A stretch of DNA of 7,633 nt from the IMG/VR virus record IMGVR_UViG_2654587509_000013; one strand, 5' to 3'. Under the pieces are notes generated by a model. The model was not told the DNA's origin. It did no database searches and worked only from the letters and a program-made list of their open reading frames with translations. Below are positions 2,502 through 7,244 of this stretch, piece by piece (position 1 is the first letter of the stretch; each line of letters starts with the position of its first letter). This DNA comes from a virus. Taxonomy: Duplodnaviria; Heunggongvirae; Uroviricota; Caudoviricetes. The translations under genes were made by a program, and so were the position numbers.

Positions 2502-2909
2502 ATGAACGAGAAAACTTTAGGTCAACGCATTAGAGAAAGACGTAAGCAGGTAGGCTTAAGTCAAAACGGTTTAAGCAAAGCTGCTGGCGTATCTGGCTCA
2601 TCAATTTCATTATGGGAAAGTGACCATACAGCCCCGCGCGGGCAAAATTTGCATCGCCTCGCCGAGGTATTGCAATGTTCACCAACCTGGATACTGTTTG
2701 GCGACGAGGACAAAACACCAGCTCCCCCTGTTTCACTCGATAGTACCCTAGACTTATCGGAAGATGAGTTAGAGATGCTGCGTTTGTATCGCGCACTTCC
2801 TAAATCAGAGCAACAAGCACAACTCAGCGAACTCCGCGCCCGCGTTGAGAATTTTAATCGCCTGTTCACCGAGCTATTAGAGGCTCGCAAACGCAACAAG
2901 CATCAATAA
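2502..2909 (+). CDS. dicA: DicA-like HTH (XRE-family) prophage repressor, 135 aa
   Basis: N-terminal HTH (LGQRIRERRKQVGLSQNGLSKAAGVSGSSISLWE) and the C-terminal motif VLQCSPTWILFGDEDK match what I recall of E. coli DicA (135 aa). Start taken at ATG 2502 (MNEKTLGQRIR) rather than the upstream in-frame ATG at 2451, which lies in the operator. No S24 peptidase domain, so this is not a LexA-like autocleaving repressor. Confidence 0.85.
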   Translation: MNEKTLGQRIRERRKQVGLSQNGLSKAAGVSGSSISLWESDHTAPRGQNLHRLAEVLQCSPTWILFGDEDKTPAPPVSLDSTLDLSEDELEMLRLYRALPKSEQQAQLSELRARVENFNRLFTELLEARKRNKHQ

Positions 2910-2966
2910 TCATCCCTTCACAAAATTTTAAAGCCTTACATTTCAATGTATTGGCTTTATCTTGCG

Positions 2967-3025
2967 CCAATACTTGAGTTTTCTCATCAAAAAACCTTGA
3001 CGAAAAATAATGAGAAAACTAAATT
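2967..3025 (+). promoter_or_regulatory. Second operator set and putative rightward promoter (OL/pL analogue)
   Basis: CCAATACTTGAGTTTTCTCA (2967-2986) repeats the operator at 2432-2450 with a 1-nt indel, sharing a 13-nt identical core. An inverted partner TGAGAAAACTA sits at 3011-3021. Between them: -35 TTGACG (2996-3001), 18-bp spacer, -10 TAAATT (3020-3025). Confidence 0.55.
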
Positions 3026-3101
3026 ACCTCCATCAACACACCGCACGGTGTTCTCCGCAAACAGTTCCGCTACCCCGGCGTTAAGGGGAAATGAGGTCAG
3101 C

Positions 3102-3254
3102 ATGGATACTATCGATCTTGGCAACAGCGAATCTCTGGTATGTGGCGTGTTCCCCAACCATGACGGTACGTTCACCGCGATGACATATACCAAAAGCAAA
3201 ACGTTTAAAACCGAATCTGGCGCGCGTTGCTGGTTAGCCAGAAACACTGACTGA
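3102..3254 (+). CDS. ydfA: YdfA-like small protein (DUF1391-type), 50 aa
   Basis: ATG 3102 with SD GAGG and a 5-nt spacer. MDTIDLGNSESLVCGVFPNHDGTFTAMTYTKSKTFKTESGARCWLARNTD resembles what I recall of E. coli YdfA/YdaF. Sits immediately downstream of the dicA-like gene, as ydfA does. The ORF track's longer 2946 start spans the operator region. Confidence 0.7.
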   Translation: MDTIDLGNSESLVCGVFPNHDGTFTAMTYTKSKTFKTESGARCWLARNTD

Positions 3255-3265
3255 TGAGGCTGACG

Positions 3266-3631
3266 ATGGAATTTAAAGATTTACCGTCTGATGTACAGAA
3301 AACAGCAGCTCATACATTGCATTCTGTGCTGCGAGAAATCGGGAAAGATATTGCAAGCGAGCCAGCAAAAGATCTGGCCCGGAAAATCAAGACCGCTTTC
3401 GTTGAGCTTTATAATGTTGGCACTGACTCTGAAACTGTCGAGACCAAGACCGTAAGTTCACCAATATTCTCACTTGAGCCAGGCGTATTATCAGGTGAAA
3501 TATGCACCGAGATTTCCAGCGAACTGCTTCCGGTAATACGAGAAGCAATTTGCCGTCGCGGTTTGGATGGAAGTTACGATCATGACGTCCTGCAAGTTCT
3601 CAGGACAATGGTGACTTCACTGGGGATTTGA
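3266..3631 (+). CDS. Hypothetical protein, 121 aa, co-transcribed with the repressor-side operon
   Basis: ATG 3266 with SD TGAGG and a 6-nt spacer. An alternative ATG at 3254 overlaps the ydfA-like stop (TGATG). Amino-acid composition is protein-like; no recognisable motif. Confidence 0.7.
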   Translation: MEFKDLPSDVQKTAAHTLHSVLREIGKDIASEPAKDLARKIKTAFVELYNVGTDSETVETKTVSSPIFSLEPGVLSGEICTEISSELLPVIREAICRRGLDGSYDHDVLQVLRTMVTSLGI

Positions 3632-3800
3632 TCCCTGCGTCCTCTAACCTTTTGATATAGCGGTCCTCCAAGAAGCGGTAAATTTTGTCGAAATCATCTT
3701 TCCCCTCTGGTTTATTCAGAGGATTACAGGACCCGTAAGTAGCGGCATACATTTCAACCGTTTTATCAAAAATATAAGAGACAAATTCTTCTTTAGTCAT
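3600..3800 (-). CDS. Hypothetical small protein, 66 aa, antisense AT-rich moron-like gene
   Basis: ATG at 3800 with a good SD (AAGGAA, 7-nt spacer). Visibly more AT-rich than its neighbours. The 3' end overlaps the 3' end of the 121-aa gene by 32 bp, convergently. Confidence 0.6.
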   Translation of the reverse strand: MTKEEFVSYIFDKTVEMYAATYGSCNPLNKPEGKDDFDKIYRFLEDRYIKRLEDAGIKSPVKSPLS

Positions 3801-3877
3801 ATAGATTTCCTTCTTGGTTATTCGGAATAAGAAGGATACCACCTCGCCTGACGTGGTTAAAAGCAGGCACACAACAC

Positions 3878-4050
3878 GAAAGCGCACGGCGAAGTTCGTC
3901 TCACTGTACGGTGTCGTTAAATTTAATTCGACCGTGCGCTTCCGGTTGTGGCAACCCGCGAAATGGCGCGGCGGTAAGTATGGCGGGGTTATTCCTTCCC
4001 CGTTGAGGACACCGAGTTGTCAGGTTGACCATACGCTTAAGTGACAACCC
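3878..4050. other. GC-rich structured spacer, candidate ncRNA or protein-binding element (strand unknown)
   Basis: A 13-bp stem with a 1-nt bulge (3881-3893 pairs with 3927-3940), a hairpin CGGGG/CCCCG (3984-3988 and 3998-4002), and a 7-bp stem GTTGTCA/TGACAAC (4016-4022 and 4042-4048). The only ORF here (3814-4044, basic and low-complexity) does not look coding. Confidence 0.3.
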
Positions 4051-4090
4051 CGCTGCAACGCCCTCTGTTATCAATTTTCTGGTGACGTTT

Positions 4091-4133
4091 GGCGGTATCA
4101 GTTTTACTCCGTGACTGCTCTGCCGCCGTTTTT
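4091..4133 (+). terminator. Possible intrinsic terminator (plus strand)
   Basis: GGCGG (4091-4095) pairs with CCGCC (4123-4127) around a long, partly self-paired loop, followed by a T5 run at 4129-4133. The loop is unusually large for a canonical terminator. Confidence 0.3.
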
Positions 4134-4302
4134 AAAGTGAATTTTGTGATGCGGTGAATGCGGCTAAGCGCACGCGGAACAGTTAAAACCAAAAACAGTG
4201 TTATGGGTGGATTCTCTGTATCCGGCGTTAATTGTTAACTGGTTAACGTCACCTGGAGGCACCAGGCACTGCATCACAAAATTCATTGTTGAGGACGCGA
4301 TA

Positions 4303-4491
4303 ATGAAAACGTTATTACCAAACGTTAATACGTCTGAAGGTTGTTTTGAAATTGGTGTCACTATCAGTAACCCTGTATTTACTGAAGATGCCATTAACAA
4401 GAGAAAACAAGAACGGGAGCTATTAAATAAAATATGCATTGTTTCAATGCTGGCTCGTTTACGTCTGATGCCAAAAGGATGTGCACAATGA
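4303..4491 (+). CDS. Hypothetical small protein, 62 aa
   Basis: ATG 4303 with SD GAGGA and a 7-nt spacer. Its stop overlaps the next start (ATGA at 4488-4491), implying translational coupling. Confidence 0.55.
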   Translation: MKTLLPNVNTSEGCFEIGVTISNPVFTEDAINKRKQERELLNKICIVSMLARLRLMPKGCAQ

Positions 4492-4679
4492 ATTCAGCAT
4501 TTGCGCTTGTTCTGACAGTTTTTCTTGTTTCCGGAGAGCCAGTTGATATTGCAGTCAGTGTTCACAGGACAATGCAGGAGTGTATGACTGCAGCAACCGA
4601 ACAGAAAATTCCCGGTAACTGTTACCCGGTCGATAAAGTTATTCACCAGGATAATATCGAAATCCCGGCAGGTCTTTAA
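4488..4679 (+). CDS. Hypothetical small exported or membrane protein, 63 aa
   Basis: ATG 4488 with an AAGGA SD. N-terminal hydrophobic segment MNSAFALVLTVFLVSG resembles a signal peptide or transmembrane helix; three Cys in the mature part. Confidence 0.6.
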   Translation: MNSAFALVLTVFLVSGEPVDIAVSVHRTMQECMTAATEQKIPGNCYPVDKVIHQDNIEIPAGL

Positions 4680-4772: not shown

Positions 4773-7244
4773 ATGAGTAAAGTCTTTATTTGCGCCGCTA
4801 TTCCTGACGAACTGGCAACAAGGGAAGAAGGCGCTGTGGCTGTAGCCACAGCCATTGAAGCTGGCGACGAACGCCGTGCTCGAGCAAAATTTCACTGGCA
4901 GTTCCTGGAACATTATCCGGCTGCTCAGGACTGCGCTTATAAATTTATTGTCTGCGAGGATAAACCTGGCATACCCCGCCCTGCCCTCGATTCATGGGAT
5001 GCTGAATATATGCAGGAAAACCGCTGGGATGAGGAGTCTGCTTCTTTTGTCCCGGTTGAGACTGAATCCGATCCGATGAACGTCACTTTTGACAAGCTGG
5101 CCCCTGAAGTACAGAACGCTGTCATGGTTAAGTTCGACACATGTGAAAACATCACCGTTGATATGGTTATTAGCGCACAGGAATTGTTGCAGGAAGACAT
5201 GGCAACATTCGACGGACATATCGTTGAAGCGTTGATGAAAATGCCAGAAGTTAACGCCATGTATCCGGAGCTTAAGTTGCACGCCATTGGGTGGGTTAAG
5301 CATAAATGTATTCCTGGTGCTAAATGGCCCGAAATTCAGGCAGAGATGCGCATCTGGAAAAAACGTCGCGAAGGTGAACGCAAGGAAACCGGAAAATACA
5401 CGTCTGTTGTTGATCTCGCCCGCGCCAGAGCCAATCAACAGTACACTGAAAATTCAACAGGAAAAATCAGCCCGGTCATTGCTGCCATTCATCGCGAATA
5501 CAAGCAGACATGGAAAACACTGGATGACGAACTGGCCTACGCTCTCTGGCCTGGTGATGTGGATGCCGGAAACATTGACGGCAGCATCCATCGCTGGGCA
5601 AAAAAAGAAGTTATCGACAACGACCGCGAAGACTGGAAGCGTATCTCGGCATCAATGCGCAAACAGCCTGATGCCCTTCGCTACGACCGCCAGACTATTT
5701 TTGGCCTTGTCCGTGAGCGTCCGATCGACATTCACAAAGATCCCATAGCACTGAACAAATATATCTGCGAATACCTGACGACAAAGGGCGTGTTTGAGAA
5801 TGAAGAAACAGACCTGGGCACTGTTGATGTTCTCCAGTCATCAGAAACACAAACTGATGCAGTGGAAACTGAGGTATCTGATATCCCAAAAAATGAAACC
5901 GCGCCGGAAGCTGAACCATCTGTAGAGCGTGAGGGGCCGTTCTATTTCCTCTTCGCAGATAAGGACGGAGAAAAATACGGTCGCGCAAACAAACTTTCTG
6001 GTCTGGATAAGGCACTGGCTGCTGGCGCCACTGAAATCACAAAAGAAGAATATTTTGCCCGAAAAAATGGCACATACACGGGCTTACCGCAAAATGTAGA
6101 TACCGCTGAAGATTCAGAACAACCAGAGCCGATAAAAGTTACCGCTGACGAAGTAAACAAAATTATGCAGGCAGCCAATATCAGCCAGCCTGACGCCGAT
6201 AAGTTGCTTGCTGCATCACGTGGTGAATTTGTTGAAGGGATTAGTGACCCGAATGATCCGAAATGGGTTAAGGGGATCCAGACCCGCGATTCTGTGAACC
6301 AGAACCAGCATGAATCGGAACGGAACTACCAAAAAGCGGAACAAAACAGCACAAATGCGTTACAAAACGAGCCAGAAACGAAACAGCCTGAACCAGTGGC
6401 GCAACAGGAAGTGGAAAAAGTCTGCACCGCCTGCGGTCAGACCGGCGGCGGCAACTGCCCTGATTGTGGCGCGGTGATGGGCGACGCAACATACCAAGAA
6501 ACATTCGATGAAGAGTATCAGGTTGAAGTTCAGGAAGATGATCCGGAGGAAATGGAAGGCGCTGAACATCCACACAAGGAGAACACTGGCGGCAATCAGC
6601 ATCACAATAGCGATAATGAAACTGGCGAGACGGCAGATCACTCAATTAAGGTGAACGGTCATCACGAAATCACATCCACCAGCAGGACGTGTGACCATCT
6701 AATGATCGACCTTGAAACCATGGGAAAAAATCCTGATGCCCCGATCATCTCAATAGGTGCAATATTTTTCGATCCGCAAACCGGAGATATGGGACCGGAA
6801 TTTAGTAAGACTATCGATCTGGAAACTGCTGGCGGAGTCATTGATCGGGACACCATTAAATGGTGGCTTAAGCAATCACGCGAAGCGCAATCTGCCATTA
6901 TGACCGATGAAATCCCGTTAGATGATGCACTGTTACAATTACGGGAATTTATCGACGAAAACTCCGGTGAATTTTTTGTTCAGGTTTGGGGAAATGGAGC
7001 CAACTTCGACAACACAATTTTGCGCCGTTCATACGAACGGCAGGGGATCCCCTGCCCGTGGCGTTACTACAACGATCGCGATGTACGCACAATCGTTGAG
7101 CTGGGGAAAGCCATAGACTTCGATGCCAGAACGGCTATTCCATTCGAAGGTGAGCGCCATAATGCACTTGATGACGCCCGTTACCAGGCAAAATACGTTT
7201 CAGTTATCTGGCAAAAACTGATCCCGAGTCAGGCTGATTCTTAA
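4773..7244 (+). CDS. Large multidomain exonuclease protein, 823 aa: unknown N-terminal domain, acidic linker, Cys4 zinc ribbon, C-terminal DnaQ-like DEDDh 3'-5' exonuclease
   Basis: Single 824-codon frame. Zinc ribbon CTACGQTGGGNCPDC (C-x2-C-x7-C-x2-C) at 6423-6467. DEDDh motifs: Exo I DLE at 6708-6716, Exo II NFD at 7002-7010, Exo III H-x4-D (HNALDDA) at 7158-7178. Sits at the exo position upstream of the excisionase-like gene. Related prophage genes are often labelled exodeoxyribonuclease VIII-like, but no PD-(D/E)XK motif or partner annealase is visible here. Confidence 0.9.
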   Translation: MSKVFICAAIPDELATREEGAVAVATAIEAGDERRARAKFHWQFLEHYPAAQDCAYKFIVCEDKPGIPRPALDSWDAEYMQENRWDEESASFVPVETESDPMNVTFDKLAPEVQNAVMVKFDTCENITVDMVISAQELLQEDMATFDGHIVEALMKMPEVNAMYPELKLHAIGWVKHKCIPGAKWPEIQAEMRIWKKRREGERKETGKYTSVVDLARARANQQYTENSTGKISPVIAAIHREYKQTWKTLDDELAYALWPGDVDAGNIDGSIHRWAKKEVIDNDREDWKRISASMRKQPDALRYDRQTIFGLVRERPIDIHKDPIALNKYICEYLTTKGVFENEETDLGTVDVLQSSETQTDAVETEVSDIPKNETAPEAEPSVEREGPFYFLFADKDGEKYGRANKLSGLDKALAAGATEITKEEYFARKNGTYTGLPQNVDTAEDSEQPEPIKVTADEVNKIMQAANISQPDADKLLAASRGEFVEGISDPNDPKWVKGIQTRDSVNQNQHESERNYQKAEQNSTNALQNEPETKQPEPVAQQEVEKVCTACGQTGGGNCPDCGAVMGDATYQETFDEEYQVEVQEDDPEEMEGAEHPHKENTGGNQHHNSDNETGETADHSIKVNGHHEITSTSRTCDHLMIDLETMGKNPDAPIISIGAIFFDPQTGDMGPEFSKTIDLETAGGVIDRDTIKWWLKQSREAQSAIMTDEIPLDDALLQLREFIDENSGEFFVQVWGNGANFDNTILRRSYERQGIPCPWRYYNDRDVRTIVELGKAIDFDARTAIPFEGERHNALDDARYQAKYVSVIWQKLIPSQADS

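Follow-up and report, generated by a model that had tools for sequence, protein, structure and literature searches.

The small RNA DicF (RF00039) of the K-12 Qin prophage is processed out of a polycistronic transcript, as described by Faubladier et al. 1990 and confirmed by Ragunathan et al. 2023 (PMC10448788). RNase E generates the 5' end of DicF and RNase III a 190-nt form, and the RNA is Hfq-dependent and represses ftsZ (PMC10448788, PMC5069750, PMC9438474). The 5' end of the 190-nt species requires RNase III; this RNA is a substrate of RNase E, builds up on RNase E inactivation and accumulates in stationary phase, the 53-nt form requires RNase E, and an internal promoter was not found (PMC10448788). 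Both species end at the DicF terminator (PMC10448788, PMC5069750, PMC9438474), and such terminated species are the main products in vivo, the read-through transcript being visible only in rne-ts cells (PMC10448788). The 190-nt precursor and its processing through the two nucleases RNase III and RNase E go back to Faubladier et al. 1990 (as cited in PMC10448788). As far as the accessible text of these reports extends, the 5' part of pre-DicF is treated as a processing intermediate, and neither a conserved pseudoknotted fold nor its presence in other phages is described there. Other systems used for comparison are the put RNAs of phage HK022, which are about 70 nt long and form two stem-loops (PMC9378689), the nut sites of phage lambda, and a bare "dicF-like region" feature in the phage P1 record (NC_005856, 68791-68892). 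The put RNAs are processive antiterminators made of RNA only, which suppress termination through the zinc-binding domain of the RNA polymerase beta' subunit; a lambda nut site combines boxA and a boxB hairpin with a cognate N protein.

In the window (the whole stretch of 7,633 nucleotides that was analyzed) a lambdoid prophage is represented by its immunity and early-left region, and over the compared part the window is 100% identical to the plaque-forming phage mEp460 and to many E. coli chromosomes. To judge from its sequence, the studied region is the dicF locus of a mEp460/Qin-type lambdoid prophage, with the same terminator hairpin, the same neighbors (dicB and ydfD) and the same DicA/DicC-type immunity position as the K-12 locus. 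The initial annotation had proposed one structured, GC-rich candidate ncRNA element here. Its ncRNA part holds and its four stems are all present on the plus strand and recur in folding, but the locus is built of four modules rather than one (hairpin 1, a 115-nt core, a small hairpin, and the 53-nt DicF with its own terminator; Table 1). DicF and its 190-nt precursor as an entity are already known, and the locus as flagged adds nothing new. What is new is that in temperate enterobacterial phages the 5' domain of the precursor constitutes an RNA family with covariation and a pseudoknot, coupled to an intrinsic terminator. The enrichment in G and C was real but modest (0.52-0.53 versus 0.36-0.47 in the flanks), and ARAGORN finds no tRNA or tmRNA, in agreement with the lack of a T-loop noted earlier.

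Table 1. Features of the dicF locus and its surroundings in the window
Feature	Position	Strand	Basis or remark
cro-like gene and replication genes	in the window	-	
DicA-type repressor, DUF1391 gene, 125-aa ORF	upstream of the studied region	+	
Hairpin 1, lower stem 3877-3893 with 3927-3945	3877-3945	+	MFE equals centroid
Conserved pseudoknotted core, 5' domain of pre-DicF	3945-4059	+	covariation, MFE/centroid
Helix P1	3945-3952/4052-4059	+	core helix
Helix PA	3956-3960/3967-3971	+	core helix
Helix PB	3972-3975/4011-4014	+	core helix
Pseudoknot, GUAUGG/CCAUAC	3978-3983/4029-4034	+	core
Helix P2, CGGGG/CCCCG	3984-3988/3998-4002	+	core helix
Helix P3	4016-4022/4042-4048, plus 4023-4024/4036-4037	+	core helix
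Small hairpin, UGUUAUCA (4066-4073) with UGGUGACG (4080-4087)	4066-4087	+	RNAalifold consensus
DicF sRNA, 53 nt	4076-4128	+	RF00039 and K-12 ncRNA annotation
Rho-independent DicF terminator, stem GGCGGUAUCAG...CUGCUCUGCCGCC	4091-4133	+	Rfam consensus structure, sequence
U5 run of the DicF terminator	4129-4133	+	
dicF-dicB spacer (dicB 5' leader)	4140-4280	+	highly conserved
dicB	4304-4492	+	RefSeq annotation of identical locus; ORF
ydfD	4488-4679	+	RefSeq annotation of identical locus; ORF
dicB, ydfD, 823-aa exonuclease, xis, int (in this order)	3' of the studied region		

Homology to K-12 Qin starts abruptly at about 3866-3872 and runs on through dicB, with near-identity to the K-12 precursor sequence from about 3926 to 4133; the genes 5' of this mosaic boundary are unrelated to K-12 Qin. 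The plus strand of the locus would be transcribed within the early-left (dicB) operon, which is under repressor control, and dicB and ydfD are reachable only via read-through of the DicF terminator. A distance of about 1 kb and two ORFs separates the core from the presumed promoter in the window.

Several neighboring genes have features of their own. A 66-aa minus-strand gene (3600-3800), annotated in RefSeq as hypothetical, converges on the 125-aa plus-strand ORF (3254-3631), with about 32 nt of overlap at the 3' end of that ORF, inside a plus-strand operon. Neither of these two genes has a Pfam match, and the equivalent position in K-12 is occupied by ydfB and ydfC. The 823-aa "exonuclease" (4773-7244, plus strand, 3' of ydfD) carries a C-terminal Rv2179c-like 3'-5' exoribonuclease domain (PF16473, E = 2e-67), and its N-terminal ~640 aa have no Pfam match.

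The prophage sRNA suspected in the initial annotation corresponds, in the 3' part of the region, to DicF. The Rfam covariance-model search that had been proposed as a check matched RF00039 at 4077-4128 on the plus strand with 72.5 bits (gathering score 48, E = 6e-15) over the full model length (positions 1-52 of 52). The RefSeq dicF of K-12 maps onto the 53 positions of the window DicF with 52 identities, the last base being the only difference. The RNA is placed in the dicB operon, upstream of dicB, and ends in a Rho-independent terminator, which is the GGCGG...CCGCC hairpin with T5 that had been described as terminator-like. A simple terminator scan of 2800-4400 called no terminator; it missed this one because the hairpin loop is longer than the 8-nt limit of the scan, which is a limit of the scan and no evidence against the DicF terminator. 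Upstream, a small hairpin was obtained as the RNAalifold consensus of 78 DicF loci, in which its changes are one-sided only. Its AU-rich loop, AUUUUC, contains the DicF 5' end (4075|4076), where RNase E would cut and thereby create the 5' end of the 53-nt form, and within the precursor the hairpin would mask the first ~12 nt of DicF. The published processing, the Hfq dependence and the repression of ftsZ may be carried over to the window by sequence identity, and the 53-nt form would then be an Hfq-dependent antisense regulator of ftsZ, manX, xylR and pykA, acting on cell division and metabolism. Taken together, the identity of DicF and the published processing of the locus very probably apply here.

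The dicF gene is annotated as an ncRNA in K-12 and is unannotated in at least one RefSeq E. coli record, NZ_CP012376.1 (identical to the window over 3600-4500; locus L001), in which dicB and ydfD are annotated and dicF is not, despite its score of 72.5 bits.

The first module, hairpin 1, is the most thermodynamically distinctive piece of the region (z = -2.68; 2 of 200 shuffles equally stable). The 13-bp bulged stem recognized in the initial annotation (3881-3893 with 3927-3940) is real and forms part of this longer hairpin, whose lower stem has about 15-16 bp with single-nt bulges. All 31 sequence variants keep the lower stem, and the apical ~35 nt are variable and freely replaced. Counting back 190 nt from 4128 leads to 3939, inside the 3' arm of the lower stem, and the sequence in Fig. 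S1 of PMC10448788 begins in the hairpin 1 loop and ends at the DicF 3' end. Hairpin 1 and the AU-rich loop are thus located where the published 5' ends must be (PMC10448788), and the processing element considered in the initial annotation matches, in this first stem, the published RNase III site of the 190-nt precursor. By this arithmetic and the published figure, whose marked base is unreadable as text, hairpin 1 is the probable RNase III site, at which a cut at ~3939 would produce the 5' end of 190-nt pre-DicF. An outer stalk (3863-3882/4141-4160), considered for the published 72-nt DicF 3' end, was rejected, its energy being -11.9 kcal/mol versus -8.4 ± 2.8 kcal/mol in shuffles, 11% of which are as good.

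Hairpin 1 is associated with a few additional sequence features. The octamer AAGCGCAC occurs in its 5' arm (3880-3887) and again at 4166-4173, about 35 nt past the DicF terminator, and both copies are complementary to GUGCGCUU in its 3' arm (3934-3941). The corresponding long-range pairing, 3926-3945/4160-4179, has an energy of -21.3 kcal/mol versus -26.5 kcal/mol for the local hairpin; in read-through transcripts this alternative would enclose all of pre-DicF and could be a second RNase III substrate. Phage PhiR5_2 (PV340546.1, 6653-6733) matches query positions 1-79 only, with 83% identity, that is hairpin 1 without the core, so that the RNase III hairpin may represent a module of its own. 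In a Salmonella enterica locus (L125, 3639-3774, minus strand) the DicF core pattern is matched and the 5' region is different: covariance model R1 finds no core there, and only ~136 nt lie between the shared anchor AACACGAAAGC and the DicF 3' end. The same locus shares GGAUACCACC..GUGG..AAAAG.CAGGC.CACAACACGAAAGC with 3833-3885 of the window, upstream of the K-12 homology boundary.

Between hairpin 1 and the small hairpin lies the 115-nt core. Its MFE and centroid structures equal the nested part of the covariation structure, and its folding energy is unexceptional (z = -1.2 for the core alone and for 3872-4076; -2.4 for the whole region on either strand). The case for more than chance structure is made by the Rfam match and by covariation, not by single-sequence folding energy. 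Covariation in homologues, named in the initial annotation as a check, is absent from near-identical E. coli copies and strong in divergent phage copies. The divergent homologues were obtained by BLAST against phages and by a pattern excluding the E. coli allele, and 40 diverse homologues (alignment A4) were used to test P1, PA, PB, P2, P3 and the pseudoknot. In this alignment 94.4% of cells are paired, and sliding the 3' partners by 1-3 columns lowers this to 31-57%. Changes on both sides are seen in 14 pairs (64 cells), and none of 500 shuffles reaches any of the five covariation measures.

Two of the stems proposed in the initial annotation reappear as core helices, CGGGG/CCCCG (3984-4002) as P2 and the 7-bp stem (4016-4048) as P3. 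Helix P3 shows compensatory changes in five of its seven pairs and occurs in six forms: GUUGUCA/UGACAAC, GUUGCCA/UGGCAAC, GUAACCA/UGGUUAC, GCUACCA/UGGUAGC, GUUACCA/UGGUAAC and AUCACCA/UGGUGAU. PB alternates between CGGU/ACCG and CGGC/GCCG, and helix P1 between C-G and U-A. The pseudoknot reads GCAUGG/CCAUGC in the phage P1 clade and GUAUGG/CCAUGC, with a wobble pair, in others. Most core homologues were retrieved by an exact pattern within the P3 loop, and in the IMG/VR set all but one of the six bases in the 3' strand of the pseudoknot were fixed by the search pattern, so that the apparent invariance of the P3 loop and of this strand is partly due to ascertainment. The evidence for the pseudoknot consists of the conserved, free 5' strand, one covarying position (in one clade, that of phage P1) and the wobble intermediates. 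G-U pairs are frequent and would be A-C on the minus strand, which fits the plus strand only. The covariation shows that the core is a conserved structured RNA.

A search of Rfam 15 found no match over 3945-4059 (E <= 5, permissive filters) or over the cores of P1, P7, cdtI and F1055 (E <= 1), and the family merits an Rfam entry. Full-text literature searches linking DicF with structure, pseudoknot, antitermination or P1 returned nothing; earlier remarks on a conserved upstream block may exist.

The core is widespread beyond DicF. By BLAST against phage genomes the core block was found, at 75-89% identity and without the DicF seed, in phages P1, P7 and cdtI, in Stx2c-converting phages, in 2H10 and Ayreon, and in Salmonella phage F1055. 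A pattern scan of IMG/VR gave 51 distinct cores, and 4,308 of 5,426 complete E. coli genomes (79%) possess the core, with as many as eight copies in one genome; in the genome records among the matches listed, no annotated feature covers it. In 99 of 100 loci, covariance model R1 detects a single copy of the core. Among 117 non-DicF loci, an intrinsic terminator is located within ~110 nt 3' of the core in 106, and most of the remaining 11 have long-loop terminators that the criterion missed. The terminators are diverse, comprising 26 different hairpins, including an unrelated one in P1. The most variable part is the spacer between core and terminator, ranging from ~8 nt in P1 to ~35 nt in the window, where it holds the DicF seed. 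Since the core also occurs without the DicF seed and is nearly always followed directly by a terminator, the ancestral unit was probably the core plus terminator. DicF probably arose by insertion of a seed between the two, with the terminator doubling as an Hfq-type 3' end. The "dicF-like region" feature of P1 matches the core and terminator just 3' of Pban; P1 has no DicF seed and an unrelated terminator hairpin, and the similarity is to the 5' domain of the precursor, not to DicF.

An Actinobacillus phage was rejected as a distant relative because of its E. coli-like sequence, truncated core and duplicated terminator. This phage, vB_Apl-pPE4 (L257, 2470-2770), is labeled as infecting Actinobacillus pleuropneumoniae and has an E. 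coli-type DicA/YdaT/Kil/ExoVIII early region, in which the core is 5'-truncated and the spacer-terminator segment is present as a tandem duplicate. Its host assignment or assembly may merit a second look.

In its position in early operons, the core may be compared with HK022 put. Each is a cis-encoded RNA located upstream of terminators in an early operon, and the temperate phages concerned carry no annotated N gene. In P1 and P7, the core and terminator unit begins ~40 nt past the C1-controlled Pban promoters; in cdtI it begins ~285 nt after a promoter that matches 11 of 12 consensus positions and lies behind the cI terminator, and the distance from the start of the unit to the first early-left gene is ~180 nt. 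The distance to the promoter in cdtI resembles that of putR in HK022 (~270 nt), and with an early promoter upstream and a terminator downstream, the positions in P1 and cdtI would fit the put context. No N-type gene is annotated in mEp460 and 2H10, and none was found by Pfam among the ORFs scanned. The architecture is different: the core has 115 nt with four helices and a pseudoknot and is present once per phage, whereas put has ~70 nt with two stem-loops and is present in two copies. When five cores were compared with HK022 by BLAST, only 10-14-mers expected by chance appeared, and model R1 had no match at E <= 1 in the whole HK022 genome. Homology of the core to put was thus rejected on account of this architecture and the missing BLAST and covariance-model matches.

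A nut site of the lambda type was likewise rejected for the window, where there is no boxA consensus and no N-like gene by annotation and Pfam scans. In cdtI- and F1055-type loci a boxA-like GUGCUCUC(UU) (CGCUCUUUU in L206) precedes the core directly and is followed by the short hairpin PA, but the PA loop is not GNRA-like, unlike the boxB loop of lambda nut, and the corresponding segment of the window is GUGCGCUUCC, in the 3' arm of hairpin 1. The likeness of boxA to lambda nut may be incidental. In F1055-type loci (L133, L142, L183), a boxA-like GUGCUCUCUUC together with the 5' strand of helix P1, GUUGUGG, is complementary to ACACAACAGAAAAGAGCAUC directly past the terminator. The duplex has an energy of -20 to -21 kcal/mol, a level that 0.4-1.7% of shuffles reach; it would surround the entire unit of ~180-220 nt and compete with helix P1. 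It was rejected as a family feature, being significant in F1055-type loci only and not in cdtI-type loci.

Our leading guess about the function of the core, offered tentatively and by analogy, is that it may act in cis on RNA polymerase or the adjacent terminator and set the choice between stop and read-through. A stop at the terminator would yield the ~190-nt RNA and DicF, and read-through would lead to dicB, exo, xis and int, with the same logic as in HK022 put and without family relationship. The leader positions of the unit are in line with this proposal, as is the fact that strong terminators must be passed for the expression of dicB, exo, xis and int, or of the tRNAs and ban in P1. No conserved alternative pairing is apparent, and the occurrence of the core across phage types fits a host target such as RNA polymerase. 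In P1 bac-1 lysogens the expression of ban is constitutive and is not known to be accompanied by other lytic functions, a behavior that would require factor-independent passage of the P1 leader terminator. The presence of only one copy per phage and the lack of similarity to HK022 speak against such control, the absence of N is drawn from annotation and a few Pfam scans, and terminated RNAs dominate in vivo (PMC10448788).

It is possible, though doubtful, that the core represents an undescribed class of phage cis-regulatory RNAs for RNA-only read-through control, used by lambdoid phages with no annotated N and by the ban operon of P1, with DicF as a secondary invention. If the core does control the adjacent terminator, RNA-only antitermination would gain a second example, unrelated in structure to the first, and the passage of strong leader terminators in these phages and in the P1 ban operon would be explained.

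The same constant coupling of core and terminator is also what an sRNA gene would look like, and the core could be the functional, stabilizing or gating body of a family of ~190-200-nt sRNAs composed of core, variable seed and Hfq-type terminator, a reading that we regard as conceivable yet rather unlikely. Such a body would protect the 5' end, mask the seed as long as RNase E has not released the 53-nt form, and/or act in trans by binding a host protein. Consistent with this, the 190-nt RNA is seen as a separate species, which builds up in stationary phase and serves as a substrate of RNase E (PMC10448788), a hairpin would mask the DicF 5' end, the spacer that holds the seed in DicF varies as expected for diversifying seeds, and promoter, core and terminator of P1 constitute a self-contained unit of ~200 nt. 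However, the ~8-nt spacer of P1 leaves no seed, so that the core itself would have to be the effector, and it is left unexplained why the unit heads early operons that need passage of its terminator. If the core is the body of a long sRNA, DicF biology, including the control of EHEC virulence, has an unstudied component. The value of the locus lies in the two-thirds of the 190-nt precursor that have so far been treated as a processing by-product: the core is more conserved than the neighboring genes, and is common to P1 and several lambdoid lineages without the DicF seed.

The compact architecture of the core, several helices and a pseudoknot whose junctions and loops are conserved, located in 5' leaders directly 5' of an intrinsic terminator, also brings to mind a riboswitch-like element, in which an aptamer recognizing a ligand, tRNA or protein would control the terminator by alternative pairing. 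This is improbable, as the spacer between helix P1 and the terminator varies in sequence and in length (from ~8 to ~35 nt), the terminator hairpins are of 26 kinds, inspection of 21 representatives revealed no conserved anti-terminator pairing, and no Rfam riboswitch matches.

The readings in which the core has no function, a protein-coding ORF is present or the minus strand is the functional one are, together, very improbable. In the first of them, the ~200 nt upstream would be mere spacer or UTR, seemingly conserved through a recent spread of the dicF module, and the stems would be incidental. The 78 DicF-linked E. coli copies, more than 95% identical to each other, show no compensatory pairs in RNAalifold, and the single-sequence z-scores are weak; the missing signal is explained by sequences that are too alike. 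Where identity falls to 75-89%, in unrelated phages, the fold is maintained via compensatory changes. In 102 distinct DicF loci, which were collected by way of the DicF core, nucleotide diversity amounts to 0.035 in 3944-4076, 0.016 in DicF and 0.045 in the dicF-dicB spacer, versus 0.21 in dicB, 0.27 in ydfD and 0.44 in the upstream flank. The core block is thus about 6-fold less diverse than the adjoining coding genes, and its variation is limited to two islands, which are helix tips and have indels that are not multiples of three. Mere spacer or UTR is therefore highly improbable. Hardly credible at all is a small protein encoded at 3814-4044 (plus), 3911-4006 (plus) or 3901-4074 (minus), or a functional minus strand: although ORFs of 31-76 aa exist, some phage records have short hypothetical minus-strand CDSs over the region and the minus strand folds about equally well, the three crossing ORFs are broken by 1-, 2-, 3- and 4-nt indels in many homologues, in line with the ORF-poor character noted initially, RefSeq (PGAP) has no CDS there, the frequent G-U pairs would turn into A-C, and the DicF match and published RNAs are on the plus strand.

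The dicF-dicB spacer, outside the element outlined in the initial annotation, resembles Rfam STnc100 (RF02076) below threshold (34.5 bits, gathering score 47, E = 7e-6). STnc100-like matches are also found upstream of tciA/terB in P1 and P7 (L131, 2842-2961; L134, 2910-3025), every match being below the gathering score (33-43 bits versus 47). The conservation of the spacer is near that of DicF, with the overall diversity given above falling to 0.001 over 4228-4257. This STnc100-like spacer may represent a mobile module that serves as the 5' leader of cell-division or tellurite-type genes.

Finally, many loci (L224, L231, L251, L254, L255, L162, L226 and L197) keep the core and the GGCGG...CCGCC-U5 terminator, and carry, ~10-110 nt 3' of the core, another sequence at the position of the DicF 5' seed (for example AACCCAUGUUGAUUACCUUU) and different terminator loops. 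By their sequences these loci look like DicF paralogues with other target specificities.
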